DNA of 34,346 nt from an uncultured Candidatus Peregrinibacteria bacterium. GTDB taxonomy: Bacteria; Patescibacteriota; JACMRA01. The notes beneath the pieces were generated by a model. The model was not told the DNA's origin. It saw only the letters and a program-made list of their open reading frames with translations, and made no database searches. The translations under genes and the position numbers were made by a program. Positions within the stretch are counted from its first letter, which is position 1; each line of letters starts with the position of its first letter. Positions 1-34,346 of this stretch are shown piece after piece. Location: NCBI GenBank assembly GCA_937127165.1, contig CAKZLR010000018.1:1-34346 (forward strand), in the 5' to 3' direction.

Positions 1-130
1 CTTTTTCCATTTGACTTAAAATCAGTAATAAAATTTGTTTTGTTAGCAACAGTATTTTAAAATACGATAGTGGTAAATAATCTTGTTATAATTTAAAAAA
101 TGTATAATTCTTGGTTGTGCAGGTGGGCTT

Positions 131-991
131 ATGCAAAAAGTTGCTTTTTTAGGTCAAAACGGATCTTTTAGTAGTCTTGTTGCTAAAAAATATTTTAAAG
201 ATAACTTTGTGCCAACTAGTTGCAGTCAAGCTAGAGATTTGTTTGAAGCGATTGTTCGAGGAAGTGCAGACATTGCTATAATTCCTATCGAAAATACTGT
301 CGGCAGTTCGGTTTTAGAACATTATGATTTGTTTTATGATTATGAAGATAAAGTAGAAATTTTTAGAGAAGTTTATTTGGCTATCGAACATCAATTAATC
401 GGGTTAGATACTAGTAGTCTAGAAGTTATAGATACAGTTTATGCCCATCCTCAAGCCTTTTTGCAGTGTAGTTATTTTTTGCAAAATTATTCCCACTGGA
501 ATCTTAAAGAGATGGCTAATACTTCTCAAGCGATGCAACAAGTGCTCGAACAAAACTTAGCAAATATAGCTCTGATAGGCAGTAAAAAAATTATTAATGG
601 ATCAAACAACCTTAAAATTTTGGCATCTAACATACATAACCATAAAAATAACTATACTAGATTTTTGTTAATCTGCAAAAAGTGTCAGACTCAAACTTCT
701 TCTAGAGTTGATAAGTGTAGTATTTGTTTTAAACTAAAGCACCAACCAAAAAGCCTACTTTCAGCTCTCCAAATTATTAGTCAGGATTATATTAACCTGA
801 CCAAGATTGAATCTAGACCAATACCGGGAACGATTTTTGAGTATATTTTTTATGTTGATTTTGAATTTGAGCCACAAAGGCTTCGGCAAGTTAAACTAAT
901 TTTGCAGGAGTTAAGAAACAATACTATTGAACTCAAAAATTTTGGTTTTTATAAGAAGGGTAGACAAAATAATTATAAATTGGAAAATTAA
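131..991 (+). CDS. pheA: Prephenate dehydratase (PDT + ACT domain, no chorismate mutase domain)
   Basis: KVAFLGQNGSFS start, IPIENTVGSSV, AHPQAFLQC, NYTRF motif, ACT domain with INLTKIESRP and YIFYVDFE. Confidence 0.92.
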   Translation: MQKVAFLGQNGSFSSLVAKKYFKDNFVPTSCSQARDLFEAIVRGSADIAIIPIENTVGSSVLEHYDLFYDYEDKVEIFREVYLAIEHQLIGLDTSSLEVIDTVYAHPQAFLQCSYFLQNYSHWNLKEMANTSQAMQQVLEQNLANIALIGSKKIINGSNNLKILASNIHNHKNNYTRFLLICKKCQTQTSSRVDKCSICFKLKHQPKSLLSALQIISQDYINLTKIESRPIPGTIFEYIFYVDFEFEPQRLRQVKLILQELRNNTIELKNFGFYKKGRQNNYKLEN

Positions 992-11770: not shown

Positions 11771-12367
11771 ATGATAGCTTATTTAAGTGGTAAAGTTGTT
11801 GCTTCGTTCATTGGTCAAATTATTCTCAAACTTCCTTCAGGTGTGGGTTATCTTGTTCAGGTTCCGCCAACTCGTACTTTTATGGTTAATGAAAGCGTAG
11901 ATCTGTTTATTTTGGAAGTCCAGAGGGAAAACAGATCAGACCTTTTTGGTTTCACTGAATTAAAAGACAGGGAATGGGTAGAAAAGCTACTTAAGGTAGA
12001 TGGTGTTGGTCCTAAAACCGCTGCTCAAGTAATTTATGTCTTAGGCTACGAGGGGGTTTCTAGTGCAATCAAAAATAACGATGTAAAAACACTTTCCGCA
12101 ATAAAAGGTTTAGGCCAAAAAACCGCTAAAAAAATTATTTTAGAGATCAAATCTAAAGAAATTGAGATGGAAGACCTGGATCAACAAGATAAGACTACTT
12201 GGCAGGGTGGTGTGGCTACTTCCTTTGCTGAAACTCTATCAAATTTAGGTTATAAAAGGGATGAAATAGTAAGAGTTATAAGTCGTCTAAAGGCAGAAGA
12301 TTTATGGAATGAGAAAGACCTCTCAGGTATGATTAAACAGAGTTTAAAATATTTAGCTAAGAAATAA
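11771..12367 (+). CDS. ruvA: Holliday junction branch migration protein RuvA
   Basis: MIAYLSGKV, GVGY, LFGF, HhH motifs VDGVGPKTA and IKGLGQKTAKKIILE, C-terminal LSNLGY. Confidence 0.95.
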   Translation: MIAYLSGKVVASFIGQIILKLPSGVGYLVQVPPTRTFMVNESVDLFILEVQRENRSDLFGFTELKDREWVEKLLKVDGVGPKTAAQVIYVLGYEGVSSAIKNNDVKTLSAIKGLGQKTAKKIILEIKSKEIEMEDLDQQDKTTWQGGVATSFAETLSNLGYKRDEIVRVISRLKAEDLWNEKDLSGMIKQSLKYLAKK

Positions 12368-12646
12368 TCTTTATAAAAATCAGAAAATAATTTGTTAAAA
12401 ACTTAATTATACTAATTAAATTATATTATAAATTATGTTAATAATAAAATATACCAAGGATTAGGTTGAATTTCAAAATTCCAACTAGAATTCCAACCAG
12501 AACTAATTTTGAAGATACTAGATAAACCTATCCTTACGACCTCAGCGAACCAATATTACGAACTAACACAATCACTTTTCGGAAAGTAGATATTCCATTT
12601 TTAGTCTAGAAACGGGCTGTGTACCTTCTCTGAAATTTGCTTAAAA

Positions 12647-13192
12647 TTATTCTCTTCTATCTCTAAATGGATTGAAAAACTTAATTTGGTTGTTCTCTTC
12701 TGTTGGTATCTCGGGTTGAACTTGGGCAGCTTGATTTTGCTCCGGAGTTGTAGTTTGGTTTTGGTATGCTTCTTTTGGTTTTGAGACTCCTTCAGATTTT
12801 GGAGCATTATCGAACTTTTGTTGAATATTTTTTTGGGTTTCTGGGAACAATTCTTGCAAAATCTCAGTGTTGATTTGGTTGACACTTTCTGGGGCATCCT
12901 GAAGAGCTTTAGCTACAATTTCCAGTAAATCATCTAAAGGCAAATTTTTATAACCTTGAGGTTTAGCTTGTATTTGCTCAGCAATTTCTTTTGGTTTTAT
13001 TTTTTTAAGAAGAGCGAAATTAATTAAATCAAGAAAAGTATCTAAATTCTGTTTAAGATTCGGCTCGATTGCGCCACCATAAACAGACACGATTTTTGGA
13101 CCTTCAGGATCATAAATAAGACTAACTAGTAGGTTACCAAAATTGGCAGTTTGCACGACTTGTTCTAATCTTAGACTATACTTGTTTGGCAT
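12647..13192 (-). CDS. Stand-alone TSCPD/NrdJb-like domain protein, paralog of the upstream gene's C-terminal domain
   Basis: aa 3-115 align by eye with aa 519-630 of 13204..15156 (KY.L.LEQ, YD..GP.IVS, LD.FL.LINF, NLP, AP..V..I..EI); Q/E/P-rich tail. Confidence 0.6.
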   Translation of the reverse strand: MPNKYSLRLEQVVQTANFGNLLVSLIYDPEGPKIVSVYGGAIEPNLKQNLDTFLDLINFALLKKIKPKEIAEQIQAKPQGYKNLPLDDLLEIVAKALQDAPESVNQINTEILQELFPETQKNIQQKFDNAPKSEGVSKPKEAYQNQTTTPEQNQAAQVQPEIPTEENNQIKFFNPFRDRRE

Positions 13193-13203
13193 AAAAAAAT
13201 AGT

Positions 13204-15156
13204 TTATTTTGAAACTGAATTAAGTATAATATGGTTTTCTATTTTGTTCAAGTTATTTTCGTCAATTTGTTCAACTATTTCTGGTCTTATTTCTTGCACA
13301 CAACTTGGTGCGGCTCTCAAAGAGCCACTAATAAATTGCAGAATCGCTTTGATAGGTAAGTTGATGTGCTCATATTTAGCATACTCTAGTTTTTCTGATA
13401 AAAATCTAGGTTCAATATTGTTGATTAAGATAAAGTTAATCAGCTCTAAGAACAGATCTAAAGTGTTTTGTAAATCTGGTGGTAAATCTCTACCTTTAAG
13501 AGATACAATCCTAGGACCCCTTGCATCATATGTAATCGTGAGCAACATATCCCCATAATCAGTAGTTTTAAGTAGCTGTTCTAATTTTAGCACATACTTA
13601 GATAAAGAACCTAAGTTAGTTGCCAAAATTTCAGGTTTGTATTGGTGATGAGTGGTGTTTGGGGTTATTTGATAGTTTTCTGGTGGAAGTTTAGATTCTA
13701 ATTCCTGTTGTTTTTTAATAGCTTGCTTAAGAGTATTTTGTAATTCTAAAATGATAGAGCGTTGAGAACTGGCCTTTTGAATCAAAATTTGTATATATTG
13801 AGGCAATTCTTTTGAATCTAAATCGACCCATTCAAGCTTATTACTATTTGCAAAATATTTAGAGTCTATTAAAAACCCTAAGTGTAAAGTGGATTCTTTT
13901 GTTTCTTTAATTTCTGTTGTAGAAACCAAACTAGAAGTAACAGTGCCATAGAAATCAAAATATTCGTTCAGAAAGCTTTGTAAAACCTCTTCAGATTCTT
14001 TATTTTCTTTAAAATTGGTTGATGGAAGCTTAATCACACCTTCAGACCGTTTGTCAATAGCTATCAAATTCTTATTAAAATTTATTATCAGAGCATTCAA
14101 AACTATTTGTGATTTTGGCTCTATTGTTGATTTTTCTCGTTGGTTGATTGTAGCTAAAAGATCTGACAATTCGACAACTGACAACTCATTTTCGTTCCAT
14201 AATTTTTCTTCAGTTTCTTTATTTCCGTCAGTTAATCTATAAAGAGTTTGATTTTTTTCTGGTTGGACATCAATATCAACCACTTGTAAAATTTTAGATT
14301 GACCATCAATTGTTACTCTAACAAGTTCACCAATTTGAAACATCGGTTCATCTATCTTAGGTAGATCGGTTTTGGTAATTACAGGGTGATTATCGTCTTG
14401 TGAAGAAGTAAATTGTGTAGTATCAATAGTGGTTGGGGGTGAGTATTGATCTCTATCACTCCAAACTTGCCAAGGTTGACTTTGAGGGAAAAGTAAAATA
14501 CTACTATTCCTTCTAGGAATTAATTCGAAGGGGCTTTGTAGGATTGTATTTTGGTCAAAAATCTTATAGAGATCTGTACCATTTTTAATTTCTCCTGTGT
14601 TTTTGTTATACCAAAACTCGAAAGATTTTGGTCTAAGGTGTTTTTTAATTTTTTCCCAGGCCAAGCAAGGACCTTTTTCTTCGGCTAACGATTCACTGGC
14701 TCGATAGGCTTTATTACTAATGAAGTTACCAATATAATTAATTATATCTAACTCGTTGATATGTTTGTTTTGTTCTAGAAAATCATCAAAATCAGCTATT
14801 CCAATAGCAATTTTTCGATATTGAGCGACTACAGCCAAAGCCTCAGGACTAAATTGAATTTTATCAAGTAAGGCATCCAAAAATCTAACAGCTGTCTCGA
14901 TTGTATCTTGTAAGAGACTTTCATCCAAAGCTTTTTGATTATCTAAATATTTACACAGTAGGATATCTCCATATGTGGTAGCAGGTTTAGTTTGGGTTTT
15001 GTCCTGATATAAAAGCTCTAATGTCTTGTTGCTAACAACAAAAAGTCTTCTGGCGTGTAATACTTCTGTATATTTCTTCTCCCAAAATTTTCTCAATTCC
15101 GGAGTACTCTCAGTTTCCGCTGCCAACTTAAGCAGTCTTTCCAAGACAGATGACAT
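13204..15156 (-). CDS. Degenerate class II ribonucleotide-reductase-like multidomain protein (RNR remnant, SH3-like, pseudo-Nudix, coiled coil, TSCPD-like)
   Basis: TAVRFLDALLD, YRKIAIGIAD, AYRASESLAEEKGP and RRN match the NrdJ/NrdA barrel C-terminal part; no NPCxE finger loop. Confidence 0.7.
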   Translation of the reverse strand: MSSVLERLLKLAAETESTPELRKFWEKKYTEVLHARRLFVVSNKTLELLYQDKTQTKPATTYGDILLCKYLDNQKALDESLLQDTIETAVRFLDALLDKIQFSPEALAVVAQYRKIAIGIADFDDFLEQNKHINELDIINYIGNFISNKAYRASESLAEEKGPCLAWEKIKKHLRPKSFEFWYNKNTGEIKNGTDLYKIFDQNTILQSPFELIPRRNSSILLFPQSQPWQVWSDRDQYSPPTTIDTTQFTSSQDDNHPVITKTDLPKIDEPMFQIGELVRVTIDGQSKILQVVDIDVQPEKNQTLYRLTDGNKETEEKLWNENELSVVELSDLLATINQREKSTIEPKSQIVLNALIINFNKNLIAIDKRSEGVIKLPSTNFKENKESEEVLQSFLNEYFDFYGTVTSSLVSTTEIKETKESTLHLGFLIDSKYFANSNKLEWVDLDSKELPQYIQILIQKASSQRSIILELQNTLKQAIKKQQELESKLPPENYQITPNTTHHQYKPEILATNLGSLSKYVLKLEQLLKTTDYGDMLLTITYDARGPRIVSLKGRDLPPDLQNTLDLFLELINFILINNIEPRFLSEKLEYAKYEHINLPIKAILQFISGSLRAAPSCVQEIRPEIVEQIDENNLNKIENHIILNSVSK

Positions 15157-15164
15157 ATAGAGTT

Positions 15165-15193
15165 ATTATAGCAAATTTCTTTTTGATTGGCAA
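15165..15193 (-). promoter_or_regulatory. Sigma70-type promoter of the RNR-like operon (near-leaderless)
   Basis: Minus strand TTGCCA-17 nt (ending TGC, an extended -10)-TATAAT, then 8 nt to the ATG at 15156. Confidence 0.75.
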
Positions 15194-15623
15194 GGGTGTA
15201 GATGTCTCATTTATGTTTTTACAGCATAGTAGGAATATTGAAATTAAGCTAAATAATATCTATTTTATCTACTCTATATTGTGGTAAAGTCTATAAAGAC
15301 AGCTTTATGGCGTCTCGGGTTAGATACACCATTTTTACAAAGATTTTTCAGAAAGGATGAATACTACAAAGTTACTACAAAAAATATAAAAAATTTTTAA
15401 ATCATTATCTTTTTTGGCTCAACACTATACCTCAATCTAACAAACCAGTAAAATATGGTTATTTGGTTATTAAAAGTACTTTTACTTAAAGCAAGCGAAG
15501 CATGTTTATGATAACGGACTACGACCTATAAGCAACTCAAAAATTCTTTGCTCGAAAAATTAAACCAAAGACAAACTACAAAAACCCTAAATCTCTAATG
15601 ACTTTTTAAGTCTTTTACTAAAC

Positions 15624-16349
15624 CTATTTTTTCACTACCACACAGCTGGCAATCATATCATGTAAAGTCTGTCTTTTTTCTGTAAACAATACCATCAAAT
15701 GACCAATTCCGAAAGTGAACCCAGTGATTATTTTAGCAAAATTTCTACCAGTAGCTCTGGCAAAACTGATTTTGTTGCCATTCAAATCTGTTACTTTTAG
15801 CCCTAGAACTAGCTTGCCTACGGTTCCTTGATATTCTGAAGATTCCATAATAGAATAATATAACCAAGTAAATACAAGTGATGTTATGTGGACCATGATA
15901 AGTAGAAAAATTATTGATCTAAAAAAACTAAAAAAAGCTTCTTGTGCAATTTTCTCCTCTTCTGGAGTTAAATTCAGTTCTTTTCCACTAACAGTTATCG
16001 TATTGGATGAAGGTCTGTTGTTTATCAAATTGTTATTACTATTTCTTCTATCTGAAGATTTTTCTAACCTTTCTAGAGTTGTTTCTAATTCAGAAAAAGA
16101 ATTAATCATAGAAGGTAAAAACGGTATTGCAACAACAAACGATAATATAGAACTTATTACAGATATAACTAAAAAATCTACAAAGTAGCCACCAATTCTT
16201 TCCCAAAAACTAGCATAAACAAGATTGTTCTGGTAGTTTAAGTTAGAATTATTTCCAGGTTGAGGTCGGTAATATTGATTGGTGGGTGTTGTTTGAACAA
16301 ATCCTGCTTCATCTTGAGAAAAGCCTTGTTGTGGAGTAGTTGGTTGCAT
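15624..16349 (-). CDS. RDD family membrane protein
   Basis: YASFWERIGGYFVD, QGTVGKLVLGLKV, RQTLHDMIA; begins 11 bp after the valS-C stop. Confidence 0.92.
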   Translation of the reverse strand: MQPTTPQQGFSQDEAGFVQTTPTNQYYRPQPGNNSNLNYQNNLVYASFWERIGGYFVDFLVISVISSILSFVVAIPFLPSMINSFSELETTLERLEKSSDRRNSNNNLINNRPSSNTITVSGKELNLTPEEEKIAQEAFFSFFRSIIFLLIMVHITSLVFTWLYYSIMESSEYQGTVGKLVLGLKVTDLNGNKISFARATGRNFAKIITGFTFGIGHLMVLFTEKRQTLHDMIASCVVVKK

Positions 16350-16360
16350 AATACTAAAAA

Positions 16361-19300
16361 TTAGTTATTTAAAAAATTAATTTTGGATTGTTGTTGATCT
16401 AACTCTTGTTTTCTTTGCAAAAGTTGTTGTCGTTTTTCAGTCACCACCTCAGGGTCGGCATTTTGTACAAAATTGGGATTTTGTAATTGGTTTTGTAAAA
16501 ACTCAATTTGAGTTTCCAAGTCTTTTATAATTTTGTTAGTTCTGTTAACTTCAGTTTGCTTGTTTGGGATATAAGCTAGAATATCCAAAGAGTATTCATA
16601 ACCCTCTTTTTGAACACTATACAATCCCTGCTTTTGTTCTGGTACTATCTCGCTTCTGGTTGTTATCTGGATAAACTTACTGTATTTATTAAGCAATACT
16701 GATTGGGAATATACTTGAATTGATTTGGCAGGATCAATAGCAAACAAACCTCGAGTGGAACGGAGATCTTGAATAAATCTAATAATTGCAGCAAACTCTT
16801 CAGCTTGAACCTGACTATTAGGGTTTTTTGACCACAACTGGCGGTACTGCTCATTTCTCTCGAGAGCAAAAGCTAAAAGGCTTGTTTGGCCAAAAAATTC
16901 CGACCACAAAACTTCTGTTTCAAAAGGTATAAACGGTGAAACTGTGATGATAAATTGCTGAAATAGACTTTTTGCAAAAGCAACCTGTGTTTCGTCTGTT
17001 TTTAGATACTCAATATACCAATCAGCAAAATTGTCCCACAAAAAGCCATACAAAACATCAACCGAGTGAGCTAGTTCGTAGTTTTGTAGATTATGCTCTA
17101 AGTTATCTTGTAAATCTAAATATTTTTGCAAAATCCACCACGAAGCGGAGGCTAGTGATTCTGGTGATAAAAATATTTCGTTTGATACTGGGTTTGTTTT
17201 TAAGAAGGTAGATTTAGGTTTTTCTAGAGCTGTTGTAACTTTTTCTTGCCAATTTCCACTTTTGAATTCTAAAAAACGAGCAACATTCCAAATTTTATTA
17301 CCAAAGTTCCGGTATTTCTCCATTAAACGATCGGCTAAATTACCACCAAATCGCATATTTCTTCCCGGAATCATACCACTCAGCATTGATAGTCTAAGGG
17401 AGTCACTAGAAAATTTAGCGATAGCTTCTCCGGGCTCTAAACCATTTTTCAAAGACTTACTCATTTTACGACCTTTTTCATCCAAAATAGTAGGAGTAAT
17501 TACTAGATTTTCAAAGGGAACACGATTAGTAAAATATTTACCCAAAGTGATCATTCTAACTATCCATAAATAAAAAATCTCTTTGGCCGTAACCATGGTT
17601 TGGGTTGGGTAAAATTCTTCAAAATCAACTTTTTTAGCCAAATTTTGTTCCATTAGTTGGTTGTTAAACTCAGTTCTAAAATTAGTAGAAAATTTGTTTA
17701 GCACAAACTCAATACTTTCTTCAAATCCATTAATTATTTTGCCTTTAACATCTTTTAAATCGACCCACTTAGTAGTTTGATAATCCGCGCAAACACCCTC
17801 TTTTTCGGACTCAGTTTCTACATAGAAAAGATTAGATTCAAGTCGAATGTTTTGCAATTCGTTATTTTTGTAAAAATTGAATCCAAGAAAAATTTTACCT
17901 ACAAAATCCAACTTAGTTATTTCGTTCCTACTTATACCGGTTTCTTCTTCAAATTCTCTTAAAAGGGTTTTTTGAGCAGTTTCACCAAGCTCTAACTTAC
18001 CACCAACTAAATGATATTCAGCTTTTTCTTCACTCACATTTCTGAGTATATCCCAGTTTATTTTGGGAAATAGTAGTTTTTTGGTTTTAGGATTATAAAT
18101 AATTGCATGAGCCCCAAACCGGTTTTGGAAATGCTGGTCCAAACTAATATATTTGGAAAAAGTATAAAAGTAGTTACTATATAAAATATAGTCTTCAATT
18201 TCGGGAAAATGTGGGATATTGAAATGAGCTCGATTATCAAAAATAAACCGCTTGCTGGTTGGCAACCGAGATATTATTTGATTAAATTGCTCAAACGGAA
18301 CAATCTGATCGTCGGTGGAGTGATAGACAAAAATTTGCTCACAGTTTTCTTTGATTAAATCAAGTTCGGTTTGAATCTCAAAAGTATAAGCATCAGTGCA
18401 AGCTGCCACCAAATGAAGTTGCTTCACTTTGAGAGAGTTTTCGGATAGATATTTGAGTAAAAAGTTACCACCAAGACTGTGACCAACTAAAAATAGTTCA
18501 TTTTCTGGATCAATTTGAGCAATATATTTTTCAAACCAAATCTTCCAAGCTTCATAATTGGCATTTTGTTTGTTTGGCATTTGTGGGTAAAACACTTCTA
18601 TTCCAGCACTGGAGAGTTTGGTAAACAAGTTGATTTTCCAGTCGATTTTTTGCTGGCGAATGTCTATCTCTCTTTGCTTCAGCTCCTCCAGCATTTCTTG
18701 GTCAGTTTTAAAAGCATCTCCACCACCAACTATTACTACAGTTTTTTGAGGTTTAACTGTTTCCACGAAATCCAAAGTAGATAGCGGCCAAAGCGAGGAT
18801 GAAAACCAAGTATCTAAAATTTTGCTTTCTTGTACCCAGTTTCCAGGTAAATCAGGCTTATTTGGACTAACTTGGAATTTGTGCCTAATTTCAGGATTTT
18901 TCAACCACTCTTGATAACTAAAAAATTTTTTTTCTGGATTGGTGTCTAAATTATACCACACAGGAATTTTATGACCCCAGGTAAGATCTCGAGAAATACA
19001 CCAATCAAGAACATTTTGGATAAAATTTTGACCTCTTTGTCTAAATTCACTAGGATAAAAATTAACCTCATCTAAACCTTTAAGGGTTAGTTTTTGTAAG
19101 TTGGTTTTTTTGCTAAACAACTTGTGAATATCCTCAAACTTGTCCAGAATTTGACTTTCTGGTAGTATTTCAAGTAATTTATCTTTACCTGCCCAGCCCC
19201 AGCTGCAACCAATAATTTTGGTTTTGTCCATAAAGTTCTGTAATTCAATCACATCATCTTTAGTGTCAGTAAAATAGTAAACTTGTGTGGGAGATATACC

Positions 19301-31610: not shown

Positions 31611-31620
31611 TCTGTTGCAT

Positions 31621-34346
31621 ATGAACCAAGACTCAAACCAAAATAATCAAGTTGACAATATTGAGACTCAATCTACCCATCCTTATAAGGATATCGAGAC
31701 TTATTGGCAGAAACTTTGGTTTGAAAATAACCTTTACCGGGCCGTTGATTTTGATGATCGTCCTAAAAAATATATTTTAACCGAATTTCCTTACCCATCG
31801 GGTGTTAGTTTGCATATTGGTCATGTTTTTCGTTATACAGTACCGGATGTATACGCTAGGTTTTTAAGAATGAATGGTTATAACGTGCTTTTTCCGATGG
31901 GTTGGGATGCTTTTGGTTTACCCACTGAGGAGCGAGCTAGGAAGGAAGGCAAGAATCCCAAGATCATCACTAAAGAAAACATTGCTAACTTTAAGCAACA
32001 AGTTCTGCGAATGGGTTATGGTTTTGACTGGGACAGAGAGTTTTCTACAACTGATGAAAATTATTACAAGTGGACTCAGTGGATTTTTGGCGAGTTTTAT
32101 AAAGCTGGTTTAGCCGAACAAAAAGAAACTGAAGTGTGGTGGTGTCCTGAAATGGGGACTGTGTTGTCTAACGAAGAGGTGTTAGATGGTCCAAATGGAA
32201 CCAAAATTAGTGAACGAGGTGAGTATCCGGTTTATCGCAAAAAGATGAAGCAGTGGGTTTTGAGGATGCCAGAATATGCCGAAAAATTACTTAGCGGTCT
32301 AGAAGAAACTCATTTTCCAGAACATGTTAAGGAGATGCAACGAAATTGGATTGGTAAAAGCGAAGGTTGCACGGTCAGATGGGAAGTAGAAACAACTACA
32401 AAAAGCAGAAAGCAGAAAGCAAAAATTGTAATTTTACACGGTTTTCGAGGTAGTTCCCAGAGTATTTATATTCCTTGGCTTAAATCTAGGTTAGAAGACT
32501 TTGGTTGTGAAGTAGTGGCTTTGGATTTGCCTAATTTTACAGATCCAGACGAACAAGAATGTGTTGATTTCGTTTTAAACTCAGTTAAATTTGGCAACAA
32601 CACAATCATTTTAGGTCATAGTCTTGGTTCTGTACTAGCCCTCAAAGTTTTAGAAAAACTAGATCAGCCGATTTTAGGTTTGGTTACCACTGGCGGCTTT
32701 GTGTCTCCAGACTTTTTGGACAAAAACATCAATGTGCGGCCGTTTACCCATAAGTGGAATTGGAATTTTGACTTTGCAAAAATCAAGGCGAATACCACTT
32801 TTGTTAAGTGTTTGCAATCTTCTTCTGATCCAGTTATTTCTACCGCTCAAGCTCAGGCTTTGGTGCAAGCTGTGGAAGGCGAGCTGATAATTGTGGAAGC
32901 TAAAGGACATTTTAGTGATCAGATTGAACCTAGTGTTTGGAGTGTCTTTGAGCAAGTTTTACGAAAGGAAGCACTCCACCTTACAAGCATCTCTCAAGAG
33001 GAAAGTTTGATAGTTGAAACCTTTACTACCCGAGTTGATACCATCTTTGCGGTTACTTTTTTGGTGTTGTCTCCCGAGCATCCTTTGGTTTTACAACTAA
33101 CTATCGAGGAAAACTTACCAAAGGTACGAGTTTATTTGCAAGAAGTGCAAAACAAAAGTGACCGAGAAAGACAAATTGGGGCTGAAAAAACTGGAGTCTT
33201 TACCGGGAGTTATGCTATTAATCCAATTACAAAAGATAAAGTGCCAATTTGGATTAGTGATTATGTACTTGGCAGTTACGGTACTGGAGCGATTATGGCG
33301 GTTCCGGGGCACGATGAGCGAGATTTTGAGTTTGCCCAAAAGTTTGGGCTGAAAATTTTAGAAAACGTAAAACCCATAAGTGGAGAAAAAACTAGCAAAG
33401 TTTTTACTGATTACGGCGTTTTATTTAACTCAGGAGAGTATTCCGGTTTAACCAGTGAGGAGGCTAAAGAAAAATTAATCCAAAAATTGGAAGCTGAAGG
33501 CAGAGGTAAGCGAGAAATCAATTATAAATTCCGTGATTGGGTCTTTAGCCGTCAGCGATATTGGGGTGAGCCATTTCCGTTTGAGTATATTAAGATTAAA
33601 GATGGTTTAGTAGATTTTGAGAAACTAGACGAACAACTAAAAAACTCAGGTCGGATTGGTGTCGTTAACTGTGTTGTTGTTAATTCCCAAGGTCAAATTT
33701 TGCTTCAAAGGAGATCGGCGACTTTTGACTTGATTGGCGGGCATATAGGGGAAGGTGAAACTATTTCGCAGGCGATGCAACGAAAGATTAAAGAAGAGAT
33801 TGGTTGTGATCTAGGTCAAGTTTTGTATTATTTAGGCTTTACTGAAATGAATCTTAGTGAGGATAATAAAAAACTGAATTTTGTTTTTATAGTTACAGTT
33901 AAACATGAGCCAAAGATTCAAAAACCAGAAAAAGTTAGTGAGATGATGTGGGTCAAGGCTGACCAGATTTTAAATTTTGTTGTTCCTCAGTCTCAATATA
34001 CAGTTTATTTTCCTAGCTGGCAACAAAAAGATTTTGTGAAAGAATTTATAGCACAAAATAGAGATTCTTATATTGTTGATGTTTTGTCACAGGCTTTTGA
34101 TTGGATAAACAAAAATTTTTCGGGGTTATCTTTGACCGAAATTGACGGCGAGCTCCATAAGATCAGACTTCTTGATACTACTGAACTACCTTTAATTTTG
34201 CCGGATGTAGAAGACTATTTGCCGTCACCAGAAGGCCGATCTCCTCTTGGCAAGGTAGATTGGATAAACATTCGAGATGAGCAGGGTAGGGTGATTGGTC
34301 GACGAGAACCAGACACCATGCCTAACTGGGCTGGAAGTAGTTGGTA
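31621..34346 (+). CDS. leuS: Leucine--tRNA ligase, runs off the window end, with inserted alpha/beta-hydrolase and Nudix domains
   Basis: Not in the ORF track (no stop in window). Manual translation: FPYPSGVSLHIGH, PMGWDAFGLP, YYKWTQWIF, MQRNWIGKSEG, FTTRVDTIF, YGTGAIMAVPGHDERD, RDWVFSRQRYWGEP, REPDTMPNWAGSSW. Confidence 0.97.
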   Translation, partial: MNQDSNQNNQVDNIETQSTHPYKDIETYWQKLWFENNLYRAVDFDDRPKKYILTEFPYPSGVSLHIGHVFRYTVPDVYARFLRMNGYNVLFPMGWDAFGLPTEERARKEGKNPKIITKENIANFKQQVLRMGYGFDWDREFSTTDENYYKWTQWIFGEFYKAGLAEQKETEVWWCPEMGTVLSNEEVLDGPNGTKISERGEYPVYRKKMKQWVLRMPEYAEKLLSGLEETHFPEHVKEMQRNWIGKSEGCTVRWEVETTTKSRKQKAKIVILHGFRGSSQSIYIPWLKSRLEDFGCEVVALDLPNFTDPDEQECVDFVLNSVKFGNNTIILGHSLGSVLALKVLEKLDQPILGLVTTGGFVSPDFLDKNINVRPFTHKWNWNFDFAKIKANTTFVKCLQSSSDPVISTAQAQALVQAVEGELIIVEAKGHFSDQIEPSVWSVFEQVLRKEALHLTSISQEESLIVETFTTRVDTIFAVTFLVLSPEHPLVLQLTIEENLPKVRVYLQEVQNKSDRERQIGAEKTGVFTGSYAINPITKDKVPIWISDYVLGSYGTGAIMAVPGHDERDFEFAQKFGLKILENVKPISGEKTSKVFTDYGVLFNSGEYSGLTSEEAKEKLIQKLEAEGRGKREINYKFRDWVFSRQRYWGEPFPFEYIKIKDGLVDFEKLDEQLKNSGRIGVVNCVVVNSQGQILLQRRSATFDLIGGHIGEGETISQAMQRKIKEEIGCDLGQVLYYLGFTEMNLSEDNKKLNFVFIVTVKHEPKIQKPEKVSEMMWVKADQILNFVVPQSQYTVYFPSWQQKDFVKEFIAQNRDSYIVDVLSQAFDWINKNFSGLSLTEIDGELHKIRLLDTTELPLILPDVEDYLPSPEGRSPLGKVDWINIRDEQGRVIGRREPDTMPNWAGSSW

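Follow-up and report, generated by a model that had tools for sequence, protein, structure and literature searches.

The window analysed here, the whole stretch of 34,346 nucleotides, carries on its reverse strand an open reading frame (ORF) for a 650-residue protein and, close behind it, a shorter ORF (Table 1). A sequence-only reading of this DNA had described the longer frame as an intact gene resembling a ribonucleotide reductase (RNR), with a near-consensus promoter of its own. The frame is indeed intact from its ATG start, and the promoter stands as a match to the consensus only, with 11/12 positions in agreement. It is the best site in 12300-16500, a region containing 18 promoter-like sites against a shuffle expectation of 17.0 (sd 4.2), and it ends 8 nt upstream of the ATG, a position that would leave little or no leader. 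The TTGCCA -35-like hexamer is the best-scoring upstream match in 4/17 orthologues, the window included. A search of Rfam over 12300-16400 at E<=0.1 gave no match.

Table 1. Features of the locus, with positions in the window
Feature	Position	Strand	Basis or remark
NrdJ-derived pseudo-reductase ORF, 650 aa, ATG start, stop codon included	13204..15156	(-)	
RNR N-terminal all-alpha remnant, aa 1-46	15019..15156	(-)	helices 4-13, 19-35, 43-50
Conserved "RNR lobe", aa 1-245	14422..15156	(-)	profile, structure and alignment matches
Small beta-barrel ("SH3-like" in the sequence-only reading), aa 271-340	14137..14346	(-)	secondary structure of the model
Nudix-fold domain with degenerate Nudix box, aa 345-468	13753..14124	(-)	fold and profile
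Single long helix, possible coiled coil, aa 453-489	13690..13800	(-)	model
Cysteine-free TSCPD/IscU-like domain, aa 518-631	13264..13605	(-)	family HMM
Sigma-70-like promoter match, TTGCCA-17 nt-TATAAT, TG before the -10	15165..15193	(-)	consensus only
Downstream ORF, 181 aa	12647..13192	(-)	same strand, 11 nt past the stop of the 650-aa ORF
FFG/FNPF-type C-terminal tail, last 12 residues of the downstream ORF, IKFFNPFRDRRE	12650..12685	(-)	

The conserved lobe is made up of the helices at the N-terminus, three strands of the barrel and the helices that go with them, and a beta-hairpin at about aa 179-192. Its resemblance to RNR was confirmed by several routes. Pfam PF02867 matched the ORF with E 1.4e-10 (40.9 bits, cut-off 23.9), the match being confined to positions 209-357 of the 523-position profile (ORF aa 42-185), while the NCBIfam NrdJ models, whose cut-offs lie at 400-1125, gave scores of about 40 bits. 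RNR large subunits were also retrieved from the PDB (E 1.6e-14 and 4.4e-13) when a profile built from 109 family members served as the query. In the AF2 model, the lobe has a pLDDT of about 95-98, and residues 1-236 superpose on T. maritima NrdJ (3o0n_B) with Z 19.8 and an rmsd of 2.6 Å, the 206 aligned residues falling within 41..594 of the 611-residue chain. A comparison of this kind with NrdJ had been suggested in the sequence-only reading as a means of mapping the deletion described below. The viral protein BORF2 is likewise among the fold matches to the lobe (Z 14.2). Common descent of the retained parts with RNR is thus supported by Pfam, PDB profile, fold and tree. Profile and structure coverage both indicate that the ten-stranded alpha/beta barrel of catalytic RNR is incomplete in the ORF, and this sub-lobe of the barrel is predicted to fold alone; the whole-protein model has a pTM of 0.49, with uncertain packing of the domains. 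A protein atlas searched with the lobe returned unnamed clusters and one "RNR fragment" cluster, none of them informative.

Alignment with true NrdJ proteins defines what has been lost. ORF residues 3-38 align to residues 32-67 of the NrdJ P0129 (conditional E 2.3e-5), and the counterpart of aa 1-46 in true NrdJs (about residues 30-67) falls within the Pfam Ribonuc_red_lgN match. Family profile residues 56-220 align to 324-490 of P0125. Between these two blocks, about 245 residues (P0125 ~75-318) have no counterpart in the ORF, which confirms the reported absence of the first redox Cys and the finger loop. In P0125 this part of the sequence shows TNPCGE just ahead of ACNLG; the finger loop with the thiyl-radical Cys is absent from the ORF, where the helical N-terminal part (aa ~46) is followed by 12 unrelated residues and then by the strand at aa 59. 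The reported change of ACNLG to ATTYG fits the alignment, in which T60 lies opposite Cys333 of 1xje, the second redox Cys; at this position 96% of the family rows have Thr, and 41/41 rows of true RNRs have Cys. The first redox Cys lies inside the deleted segment, and the redox cysteine pair is therefore absent. Furthermore, SIAPT of P0125 reads LLFPQ in the ORF, in agreement with the claim that APTG is lost, and the phosphate loop is gone. Also missing are the ~140 residues that complete the barrel (P0125 491-628), a loss that the sequence-only reading had overlooked. Since the ORF retains the helices at its N-terminus as well as the later portion of the barrel ahead of this loss, the deletion is internal and does not represent a split gene. 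It is common to all 109 aligned family members, all of which begin with the lobe. Taken together, sequence and model show a protein that would be unable to reduce nucleotides.

The dNTPs in the window's genome are made by other enzymes. The assembly encodes NrdA and NrdB (class I) and NrdD (class III), with nrdAB and nrdD on contigs other than that of the ORF, and a PF02867 search of the whole assembly (84% complete) gave only the class I NrdA and the 650-aa ORF. The search for an intact reductase elsewhere in the genome, which had been proposed, thus turned up nrdA and nrdD, but not nrdJ. A catalytic-type large subunit is present in 24/26 family genomes, and the catalytic large subunits examined in full were class I-like in 6/6 cases.

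Between the lobe and the C-terminal domain lie modules that are foreign to NrdJ. The small beta-barrel has strands at 278-283, 286-298, 303-309, 319-321 and 325-327 in the model (pLDDT 92-95) and was detected with a family HMM in 74/109 members. The following domain had been called pseudo-Nudix, and both halves of that term hold: residues 345-468 match 3grn_B with Z 13.3 (rmsd 2.7 Å, 121 residues aligned), about 40 more Nudix entries follow at Z 10-12, and the PDB profile matches include 3i7u (E 0.0028) and 5x1x (E 0.0077). The catalytic core of the Nudix box, with its Arg and Glu residues, is REx2EE. By eye, the box is degenerate in 12/12 aligned members, the query reading QSFLNE at the core, and the domain, present in 48/109 members, is probably non-catalytic. 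It shares its fold with the C-terminal domain of MutY, NrtR and AraR (Z 11.1-11.8) and, like them, has a degenerate box; it differs in having no detectable sequence relationship to them and no DNA-binding domain attached. The ValRS and LeuRS encoded nearby have NUDIX inserts of their own; kinship with these was considered and rejected, no sequence similarity being found. In the model, a disordered linker (aa 494-519) comes after the long helix. Pfam searches with the isolated beta-barrel, Nudix-like and C-terminal segments (aa 518-650 included) gave no match at E<=10.

The C-terminal domain was recognised as TSCPD-like through an HMM of 63 family C-domains, which matches P0125 residues 694-791 (33 bits) and also P0170 (37 bits); Pfam TSCPD itself covers 699-787 of P0125 (E 2.3e-14), and the domain of the ORF does not reach the PF12637 gathering score. 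It is present in 59/109 members. The Pfam description of TSCPD mentions four conserved cysteines. In the 63-row alignment, Cys accounts for at most 9.5% of any column, and the TSCPD stretch of P0125 is likewise without cysteines at the aligned positions. The cysteine-free state is inherited from the parent NrdJ subtype and is not a new degeneration. The sequence-only reading was therefore right about the presence of a TSCPD-like domain but not in listing it as an addition, since it came with the parent NrdJ subtype.

The downstream ORF consists of a TSCPD/IscU-like domain (aa 3-115), a low-complexity linker and the C-terminal tail. With a score of 133 bits against the C-domain HMM, it represents a stand-alone paralogue of that domain; against Pfam PF12637 it scored 14.8 bits (cut-off 22.8). 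Among six stand-alone relatives in the Pfam scan, P0119 was matched at 15.7 bits and the other five were without a match. Residues 1-105 of the paralogue are modelled at pLDDT >90. A fold search with this model gave no clear relative (best Z 6.5, to 8p2b), and comparisons with IscU/SufU chains gave Z of about 5.2-5.4 and a Foldseek E of 0.06 to IscU. These weak scores agree with the IscU likeness described in PMC9669993 without proving it.

The FFG/FNPF-type tail is carried by the stand-alone paralogues, and the 650-aa protein itself is without it. The window's genome has 1,367 ORFs of 60 aa or more, and the downstream ORF is the only one of them with an FFNPF ending. Across the family, the tail occurs in 16/109 members, all 16 with the C-domain, and a second tail type in 24/109, none of the 24 with it; a further 26/109 are without the C-domain and also without any recognised tail. 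A reading of the FFG/FNPF tails as membrane-targeting helices was dropped, given the Gly and Pro inside the motif.

The gene belongs to a family of about 110 clusters at 50% identity that share its architecture. The search gave 144 representatives at 50% identity, 83 of them at E<=1e-30, and 46 clusters at 90%. The gene was found at E<=1e-30 in 27/27 species genomes of the window's GTDB class (19/19 genera). In a separate sample of 401 genomes from the phylum, a whole-architecture match was obtained in 25/25 genomes of the class. Whole-architecture proteins were not among the matches listed for the 376 other genomes; 108/376 matched at E<=1e-10, and the matches listed span only the true-RNR core (profile ~62-214). 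A small class of the ultra-small Patescibacteria thus keeps a cut-down NrdJ in every sampled species. Most matches in the class are free of stops, and some others have counted stops. In a locus search, the 12-row alignment recovered 13 loci, namely 12 family members and one distant RNR-like match, and the single lobe recovered nothing. The MAGs in which these 12 members sit bear mixed labels.

Conservation is concentrated in the lobe, whose median identity to the query is 45% (108/108 rows), against 13-32% for other segments. Over the 109 sequences, E16, D94, R114, E155, R215 and R216 are invariant and 22 further columns nearly so. In the three closest pairs, pN of the lobe is 0.13-0.23 against a pS of 0.65-0.81. 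Several pairs are saturated at synonymous sites, so omega is available for some pairs only, with values of 0.13-0.35 where dS is unsaturated. The sequence-only reading had asked whether homologues of the same architecture exist and are under selection, and the class-wide presence of the gene, with pN far below pS, answers in the affirmative. Member length varies from 371 to 1146 aa, and the middle regions are variable. Pfam applied to 45 family members gave, besides PF02867, one sub-threshold match of coiled-coil type (Tup_N, P0033), so no informative fusion emerged. P0094 and P0095 had appeared to be members with a longer barrel (Pfam match to position 444), an impression that was discarded on finding the same lobe boundary in their sequences.

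In trees of 114 tips, with true RNRs chosen by similarity to the query, the family is monophyletic (support 0.90 and 91) and its sister clade is P0125/P0129/P0136/P0140 (support 0.98 and 97.8). Within the P0125 cluster, one protein bears the name adenosylcobalamin-dependent RNR. We hold with high confidence that the family is a conserved non-catalytic descendant of a class II (adenosylcobalamin-type) NrdJ. It goes back to one event, which took place in the ancestor of this small class or brought the gene into it by transfer. The loss took in the first half-barrel together with the finger loop and the strands at the end of the barrel; the IscU-like/TSCPD-like C-terminal domain of NrdJ survived, and between lobe and C-domain the protein gained the small beta-barrel, the Nudix-fold domain and linkers that are helical or disordered. 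As for selection, the family is very probably maintained as a non-catalytic NrdJ derivative. The suggestion of a non-catalytic RNR derivative is accordingly supported, as the RNR match is significant and the homologues are under selection.

Comparison with known relatives places these changes in context. The P0125-type NrdJ is built of lgN, barrel and TSCPD/IscU-like domain, some members having inteins. It has in common with the ORF the N-terminal helices, the barrel segment betaF-betaH including the hairpin, and a TSCPD/IscU-like domain without cysteines. In contrast, the ORF is without the ~245 residues that hold the first half-barrel, the specificity loops and the finger loop, and without the last ~140 barrel residues and the phosphate loop; its redox Cys has become Thr, the Cys-containing C-terminal tail of NrdJ has been replaced, and the beta-barrel and Nudix fold are insertions. 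In split NrdJ, the IscU-like C-terminal module forms a separate gene, nrdJb, according to PMC9669993 and PMC5704485. As in the NrdJa/NrdJb pair of the Pseudomonas aeruginosa type described there, a stand-alone TSCPD/IscU-like gene adjoins the large one at our locus. The same papers give NrdJa as a complete catalytic barrel and NrdJb as having a zinc finger and a cysteine pair, and neither ORF here has these. Unlike split NrdJ, the large protein here keeps its own TSCPD/IscU-like copy.

A further parallel is found among viruses. The R1 homologues of betaherpesviruses and BORF2 keep the whole R1 fold. The present family, unlike them, is bacterial, derives from class II and retains under half of the barrel. 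What they would have in common is an RNR large-subunit homologue retained for a non-enzymatic, protein-binding role, proposed here and described for the inactive betaherpesvirus homologues (UL45, M45, HHV-6B R1) and the moonlighting EBV BORF2 in PMC5469499 and PMC11772975.

As all catalytic parts have been lost, a new role as a scaffold without enzyme activity is probable for the protein. In the mechanism that we propose, it would be an oligomeric scaffold or adaptor in which the RNR lobe is retained as a docking surface. Through the IscU-like domain, the protein would associate with itself and pair with the stand-alone paralogue downstream, which would provide in trans a flexible linker and the conserved FFNPF-type C-terminal peptide. 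Many orthologues carry this peptide in cis. According to PMC9669993 (section 2.4) and PMC5704485, where a class II enzyme has a long C-terminus it contains an IscU-like domain, for which dimerisation has been proposed, and the class II C-terminal region is required for higher oligomers. Papers on RNR connect the hairpin retained in the lobe with the binding of either the radical cofactor or the beta subunit; its residues F179 and W182 are conserved at 95% and 92%. Catalytic RNRs or the sister clade of NrdJs share most of the residues that are highly conserved in the lobe, and these may simply hold the fold and not mark a new site.

A complex prediction for the 650-aa and downstream proteins, an approach that the sequence-only reading had put forward, lends weak support to their pairing, with an ipSAE of 0.41 (runs 0.35, 0.41, 0.59) against 0.00 for the best of three controls. 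The mark applied is passed by 58/80 solved complexes and 2/110 mismatched pairs; at scores of 0.60 or below, only 7/80 solved complexes passed and both passing mismatches are found there, and a pass in that band is more often wrong than right unless the pairing is likely beforehand. The runs agreed in at least 56% of contacts and the partner had a pLDDT of at least 61; the prediction did not return an interface. Of 17 loci compared, just 2 have the small paralogue next to the gene. When the neighbourhoods of these 17 loci were clustered by BLASTP, no partner was conserved beyond the genus, so the context yields no partner. On balance, we lean towards a conserved non-catalytic NrdJ descendant acting as an oligomeric scaffold with the downstream paralogue as the best explanation of the whole. 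The scaffold-with-tail mechanism is put forward more tentatively: it may be right in outline, but we would sooner expect it to need revision.

Other roles, along the lines of the regulator, decoy subunit or nucleotide-sensing scaffold named in the sequence-only reading, were weighed against this one. The protein could regulate or decoy a catalytic RNR, its lobe binding NrdB (or NrdA/NrdD) and tuning or sequestering dNTP synthesis. The catalytic-type large subunits that coexist with the family in most of its genomes would offer a target, the hairpin said to touch the ferritin subunit of class I enzymes is kept and conserved, and BORF2 and the inactive betaherpesvirus R1 proteins are described cases of reuse for protein binding. 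We nevertheless regard this role as improbable: the lobe comes from NrdJ, whose hairpin would have faced cobalamin and not a beta subunit, the gene is unlinked to nrdAB or nrdD in a neighbourhood that is not conserved, and the window holds no NrdR-box-like site with up to 3 mismatches (0 against 0.97 expected). Slightly less probable still is a more specific version, in which the lobe would be an autonomous partner-docking face that captures NrdB or scavenged corrinoid and times or places dNTP synthesis via the IscU-like domain and the tail. The sensing of a small molecule, with the Nudix fold and/or the former cobalamin-facing surface binding a nucleotide-type ligand or corrinoid and so switching the scaffold, is about as unlikely. 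The clear Nudix fold with its uniformly degenerate box speaks for such sensing, as does the presence of non-catalytic Nudix domains among the matches (MutY 1rrq, Z 11.8; AraR 5bs6, 11.6; NrtR 3gz5, 11.1). Yet with 48/109 members having this domain, at a median identity of 18%, it cannot be the core function. PMC9531940 places the adenosyl-group pocket between betaJ and the finger loop, both of which are deleted in the family, and the window's genome (84% complete) has no Pfam B12-binding domain.

Residual catalysis and decay have far less in their favour than the scaffold. Split class II enzymes made of NrdJa and NrdJb do exist, as PMC5704485 and PMC9669993 describe, and the ORF might be one piece of such an enzyme, its missing half-barrel and finger loop coming from another polypeptide. 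This is very unlikely, since the PF02867 search of the 84%-complete assembly left NrdA as the only other match, the deletion is internal, the second redox Cys is Thr in nearly all members, and the phosphate loop and last strands are gone too. Lower yet in our estimation stands a decaying chimera or pseudogene that is open by chance in the window's genome. Such decay would fit the loss of every catalytic motif, the wide range of lengths and the variable middle regions, but it is refuted by a gene found in 27/27 class genomes with most matches free of stops, a pN far below pS, the six invariant and 22 nearly invariant columns, and a lobe modelled at a pLDDT of about 97.

RNR is among the best-studied enzyme families. 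Our literature searches found no cellular non-catalytic derivative of an RNR large subunit, and none keeping under half of the barrel, in line with the earlier remark that no such family was described; the family is new and undescribed. Automatic annotation via PF02867 will call these genes "ribonucleotide reductase", and a metabolic reconstruction built on that label could mistakenly assign a class II enzyme to these MAGs. The family also offers a natural test of the role of the IscU-like C-terminal domain and the alphaH-betaH hairpin once catalysis is removed. Should the lobe prove to be a docking face that captures NrdB or corrinoid and so times or places dNTP synthesis, the protein would be a pseudoenzyme regulator of DNA-precursor supply in host-dependent organisms. 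Genome-reduced bacteria normally lose dispensable genes, and the host bacteria here are genome-reduced (~1 Mb). A gene that is class-wide, of single origin and strongly selected in such genomes therefore probably has an important function.

Analysis of the 650-aa ORF with Pfam returned Ribonuc_red_lgC alone (E 1.4e-10, 40.9 bits; aa 42–185 against profile positions 209–357 of 523), and the NCBIfam NrdJ and NrdA models scored about 40 bits against cut-offs of 340–1350. Among PDB sequences, query residues 59–169 aligned with 332–448 of T. maritima NrdJ, where T60 faces Cys333, and a profile of 109 relatives matched 5im3 (E 1.6e-14) and 1xje (E 4.4e-13). The nearest true RNRs in a library of 1.84 billion proteins (P0125, P0129, P0136 and P0140, all NrdJs) matched in two pieces: query residues 3–38 correspond to their residues ~30–67, within their Pfam Ribonuc_red_lgN match, and residues 56–223 to ~324–490. 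In P0125, TNPCGE...ACNLG immediately precedes the second piece, which has SIAPT at its end; the query counterparts of these motifs are 12 unrelated residues, ATTYG (for ACNLG) and LLFPQ (for SIAPT). From these readings, the ORF lacks ~245 residues, and with them the first redox Cys and the finger loop as well as the first half-barrel and the specificity loops; Thr stands in place of the second redox Cys, and the phosphate loop is absent. The sequence-only reading had described the same gap of a few hundred residues, the change of ACNLG and the loss of APTG correctly, and it overlooked a further loss, that of P0125 residues 491–628, which have no counterpart in the ORF.

An AF2 model built from the 109-row alignment had a mean pLDDT of 86.4 and a pTM of 0.49, with values of ~95–98 for residues 11–230. 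Residues 1–236 superposed on NrdJ 3o0n_B (Z 19.8, rmsd 2.6 Å, 206 residues, chain range 41..594), followed in the fold ranking by class I enzymes (Z 15–18). The RNR resemblance proposed for the N-terminal region was therefore recovered by both profile and fold, and by this superposition the retained pieces (aa 1–245) form a single compact lobe of the parental fold. This lobe includes a beta-hairpin at aa ~179–192; according to an excerpt of PMC9531940, this hairpin lies between alphaH and betaH in RNRs and probably binds the radical cofactor, which is AdoCbl for class II and the ferritin subunit for class I.

A word-indexed search with the ORF yielded 46 clusters at 90% identity, and an exhaustive search yielded 144 representatives at 50% identity (E<=1e-3), 83 of them at E<=1e-30. 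Approximately the first 118 library matches were relatives carrying the lobe at their own N-terminus, followed by stand-alone C-domain proteins and true RNRs. The family alignment retained 109 of the 118, omitting near-duplicates (P0040–42, P0045) and fragments (P0081, P0092, P0110, P0116, P0118). Six columns were invariant across the 109 rows (E16, D94, R114, E155, R215 and R216) and 22 more were conserved at >=90%, all within the lobe. Most conserved lobe positions are common to all RNRs or to the sister NrdJ clade, and P58, T60, P61, Q83, K115, S147, K177 and P224 are specific to the family. Domain HMMs recognised the lobe in all 109 members, the beta-barrel in 74, the Nudix-like part in 48 and the C-domain in 59, and median identity to the query was 45% in the lobe and 13–32% in the other segments. 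When 45 members were analysed with Pfam, 32 gave the same partial match from profile position 228–235 and 13 gave no RNR match at the thresholds used. Two members with apparently more of the barrel proved, on reading their sequences, to have no extra barrel.

Across 401 sampled genomes of the phylum, the full architecture was found, among the matches listed, only in 23/23 genomes of the window's GTDB family together with the window's own genome (G000), and in the single genome (1/1) of the sister family. In the remaining 376 genomes, matches at E<=1e-10 occurred in 108; of the matches listed, which were all but four, every one fell within profile positions ~62–214, in frames of true-RNR size. 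The gene is present in all 27 species genomes of the GTDB class (19 genera, E<=1e-30), where MAG labels are mixed (Patescibacteria, Saccharibacteria, Paceibacterota, 'bacterium'). In all six pairs compared, five of them within a genus, pN was far below pS; for the lobe in the three closest pairs, pN was 0.13–0.23 versus pS of 0.65–0.81. Omega ranged from 0.13 to 0.35 for pairs with unsaturated dS, with its minimum in the lobe (0.13). The expectation of homologues with the same architecture under selection was borne out on both counts.

Trees were built from 170 shared columns of 155 sequences, 114 from the family and 41 true RNRs picked by likeness to the query. The latter comprised library matches, four Patescibacteria NrdJs, one further RNR from the phylum and six class I NrdAs of the GTDB family; the G000 NrdA was dropped, with <90 columns aligned. 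The family was monophyletic (FastTree 0.90, IQ-TREE SH-aLRT 91) and, with a class I root, sister to P0125/P0166/P0167/P0169/P0170/P0129/P0140/P0136 (0.98, 97.8); the sampled Patescibacteria NrdJs were not sister to it. The P0125 cluster includes a member annotated as 'adenosylcobalamin-dependent ribonucleoside-diphosphate reductase [Gloeobacterales...'. Intein/LAGLIDADG inserts were observed in the barrels of P0129 (aa ~353–701) and P0136 (aa ~316–668), right before the segment kept by the pseudo-reductase. It is pure speculation that imprecise DNA-level loss of such an intein element could explain the deletion.

The G000 assembly (0.94 Mb, 68 contigs, 84% complete) encodes intact RNRs elsewhere, for which the sequence-only reading had proposed a search: a 560-aa NrdA-like protein with an NLCSE finger loop, whose gene adjoins an NrdB gene on contig 40, and an NrdD on contig 48 (E 6e-206). 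G000 does not need catalysis from the pseudo-reductase. A catalytic-type large subunit was found in 24/26 genomes of the GTDB family, the two without being 85% and 79% complete, and all six large subunits read end in a C-x-x-C-type tail, typical of class I. The G000 NrdA is unusually short, with PF02867 in three pieces (E 2e-40 to 2e-25), and relatives in the GTDB family have NrdAs of 810–935 aa (E about 1e-155 to 1e-196). NrdD occurs in only 4/27 genomes of the class, G000 among them; on both points, the RNR set of G000 is unlike that of its relatives. No Pfam B12-binding domain was found in G000 at this completeness.

For the added domains, some 40 more Nudix entries matched the Nudix segment at Z 10–12, including the non-catalytic MutY C-terminal, NrtR and AraR domains, and family-profile matches were 3i7u and 5x1x (E 0.003–0.008). 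The REx2EE core of the Nudix box was kept in none of the rows of a 12-row alignment of members. The isolated C-domain segment gave no Pfam match, and an HMM of 63 family C-domains matched P0125 residues 694–791 at 33 bits and P0170, of the same sister group, at 37 bits. The P0125 stretch is a Pfam TSCPD domain (699–787, E 2.3e-14) that lacks the usual cysteines; in the family C-domain alignment, Cys reaches at most 9.5% in any column. Because the parental P0125-type domain already lacked these cysteines, the cysteine-free state of the ORF was inherited. Of the domains proposed earlier, the pseudo-Nudix and TSCPD-like parts stand, and the coiled coil appears as a single long helix. According to excerpts of PMC9669993, long class II C-termini carry an alpha+beta domain resembling IscU, with a zinc finger after it; a role in dimerisation is suggested for the domain, and in split class II enzymes the IscU-like part is carried by NrdJb. 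An excerpt of PMC5704485 shows that higher oligomers require the C-terminal region.

The downstream 181-aa protein scored 133 bits against the C-domain HMM. Its model (pLDDT >90 over residues ~10–105) had weak structural neighbours only (best Z 6.5; IscU/SufU ~Z 5.4; Foldseek E 0.06 to IscU). Two types of short conserved C-terminal peptide occur in the family, each preceded by a low-complexity linker (P0007–P0090; stand-alone P0119–P0128), and both look like docking peptides. The FFG/FNPF tail was found in 16/109 members, all 16 with a C-domain, and also on stand-alone C-domain proteins; the basic-hydrophobic tail (e.g. ...STLKMMRKYQSK) was found in 24/109, none with a C-domain. The two tails were mutually exclusive. 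The 650-aa protein has neither, and its 181-aa neighbour ends in ...FFNPFRDRRE; among 1,367 G000 ORFs of >=60 aa, a loose F-rich end pattern was present in nine and FFNPF in the 181-aa ORF only. Complex prediction for the two proteins, suggested by the sequence-only reading, gave weak support for an interaction, with an ipSAE of 0.41 (runs 0.35, 0.41, 0.59; best of three controls 0.00). This reaches a mark attained by 58/80 solved complexes and 2/110 mismatched pairs, and falls in the low band (passing scores <=0.60) that holds 7/80 solved complexes and both passing mismatches. The runs shared at least 56% of contacts and partner pLDDT was >=61; the prediction returned no interface. Since the two are adjacent paralogues and the C-domain has a published role in oligomerisation, this score modestly raises the odds that the two proteins bind each other.

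The DNA around the 650-aa ORF is AT-rich (GC 0.27–0.40). The top sigma-70-like site within 12300..16500 (11/12 matches) ends 8 nt from the ATG. This region held 18 promoter-like sites versus 17.0 (sd 4.2) in shuffles, so the site would stand out by quality alone. TTGCCA was the top −35-like hexamer at 4/17 orthologous loci, the window counted, and in two more orthologues the top promoter-like site ended 9 and 11 nt ahead of the start codon. These distances hint at very short leaders for pseudo-reductase genes. No Rfam family was found near the ORF, the upstream gap included (E<=0.1), and a search of the window with an NrdR-box consensus found no similar site. Among 17 loci, gene order was kept within genera only, and a small C-domain paralogue adjoined the pseudo-reductase gene in 2/17.

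Elsewhere in the window, two class I aminoacyl-tRNA synthetases, ValRS and LeuRS, share the same pair of extra domains. BLASTP found no match between them at E<=1e-3, inserts covered, and the ORF's Nudix-like domain showed no similarity to either. In ValRS, the best tRNA-synt_1 stretch starts only at aa 261 (profile position 184 of 414), so the N-terminal catalytic part, site of the HIGH motif, may be missing or replaced. The UvrD-type ORF may be split or truncated.

Features of the pseudo-reductase locus, its protein and related genes
Feature	Position	Strand	Detail
650-aa ORF	13204..15156	-	ATG start
Small beta-barrel	aa 278-327		AF2 model
Nudix fold	aa 345-468		3grn_B Z 13.3, rmsd 2.7 Å, 121 residues
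Single long helix, then disordered linker	aa 453-489		AF2 model
C-domain (TSCPD/IscU-like)	aa 518-631		family HMM
181-aa ORF	12647..13192	-	11 nt downstream of 650-aa ORF, same strand
Tail of 181-aa ORF	12650..12685	-	FFNPF type
Sigma-70-like site	15193..15165		TTGCCA, 17 nt, TATAAT, TG before
Non-coding gap, 467 nt	15157..15623		upstream of 650-aa ORF; beyond it, RDD-family gene and ValRS gene
ValRS gene, 1187 aa	16361..19924	-	extra HAD (aa 70-226), alpha/beta-hydrolase (aa ~436-569), NUDIX (aa 603-726)
UvrD-type helicase ORF, 439 aa	21451..22770	-	N-terminal helicase domain families matched only
LeuRS gene, past window end	31615..34344	+	alpha/beta-hydrolase insert (aa 271-440), NUDIX insert (aa 683-788)
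NrdA-like gene	contig 40, 955..2637	-
NrdD gene	contig 48, 6256-7983	-

The ORF is an NrdJ derivative of single origin that is under selection, occurs throughout the class and is incapable of catalysis. A decaying gene is disfavoured by its presence throughout the class and by pN lying far below pS, and one part of a split enzyme is likewise disfavoured, as no other complementing PF02867 fragment was found in G000 (84% complete). We infer that the pseudo-reductase acts as an oligomeric scaffold, in which the lobe would serve as a docking surface and the IscU-like domain would mediate self-association and pairing with the downstream paralogue; the latter would contribute the tail peptide in trans, where other members have it in cis. 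Two rivals to the scaffold would give the protein other roles: it may regulate or decoy the class I enzyme, or it may sense a ligand through its Nudix fold.

No account of such a family turned up in full-text literature searches, in agreement with the sequence-only reading. Going by excerpts of the published accounts, the nearest concepts are the enzymatically inactive R1 homologues of betaherpesviruses and split NrdJa/b. The pseudo-reductase is an RNR-derived pseudoenzyme; its unusual point is that under half of the barrel remains, as a lobe that is predicted to fold alone.
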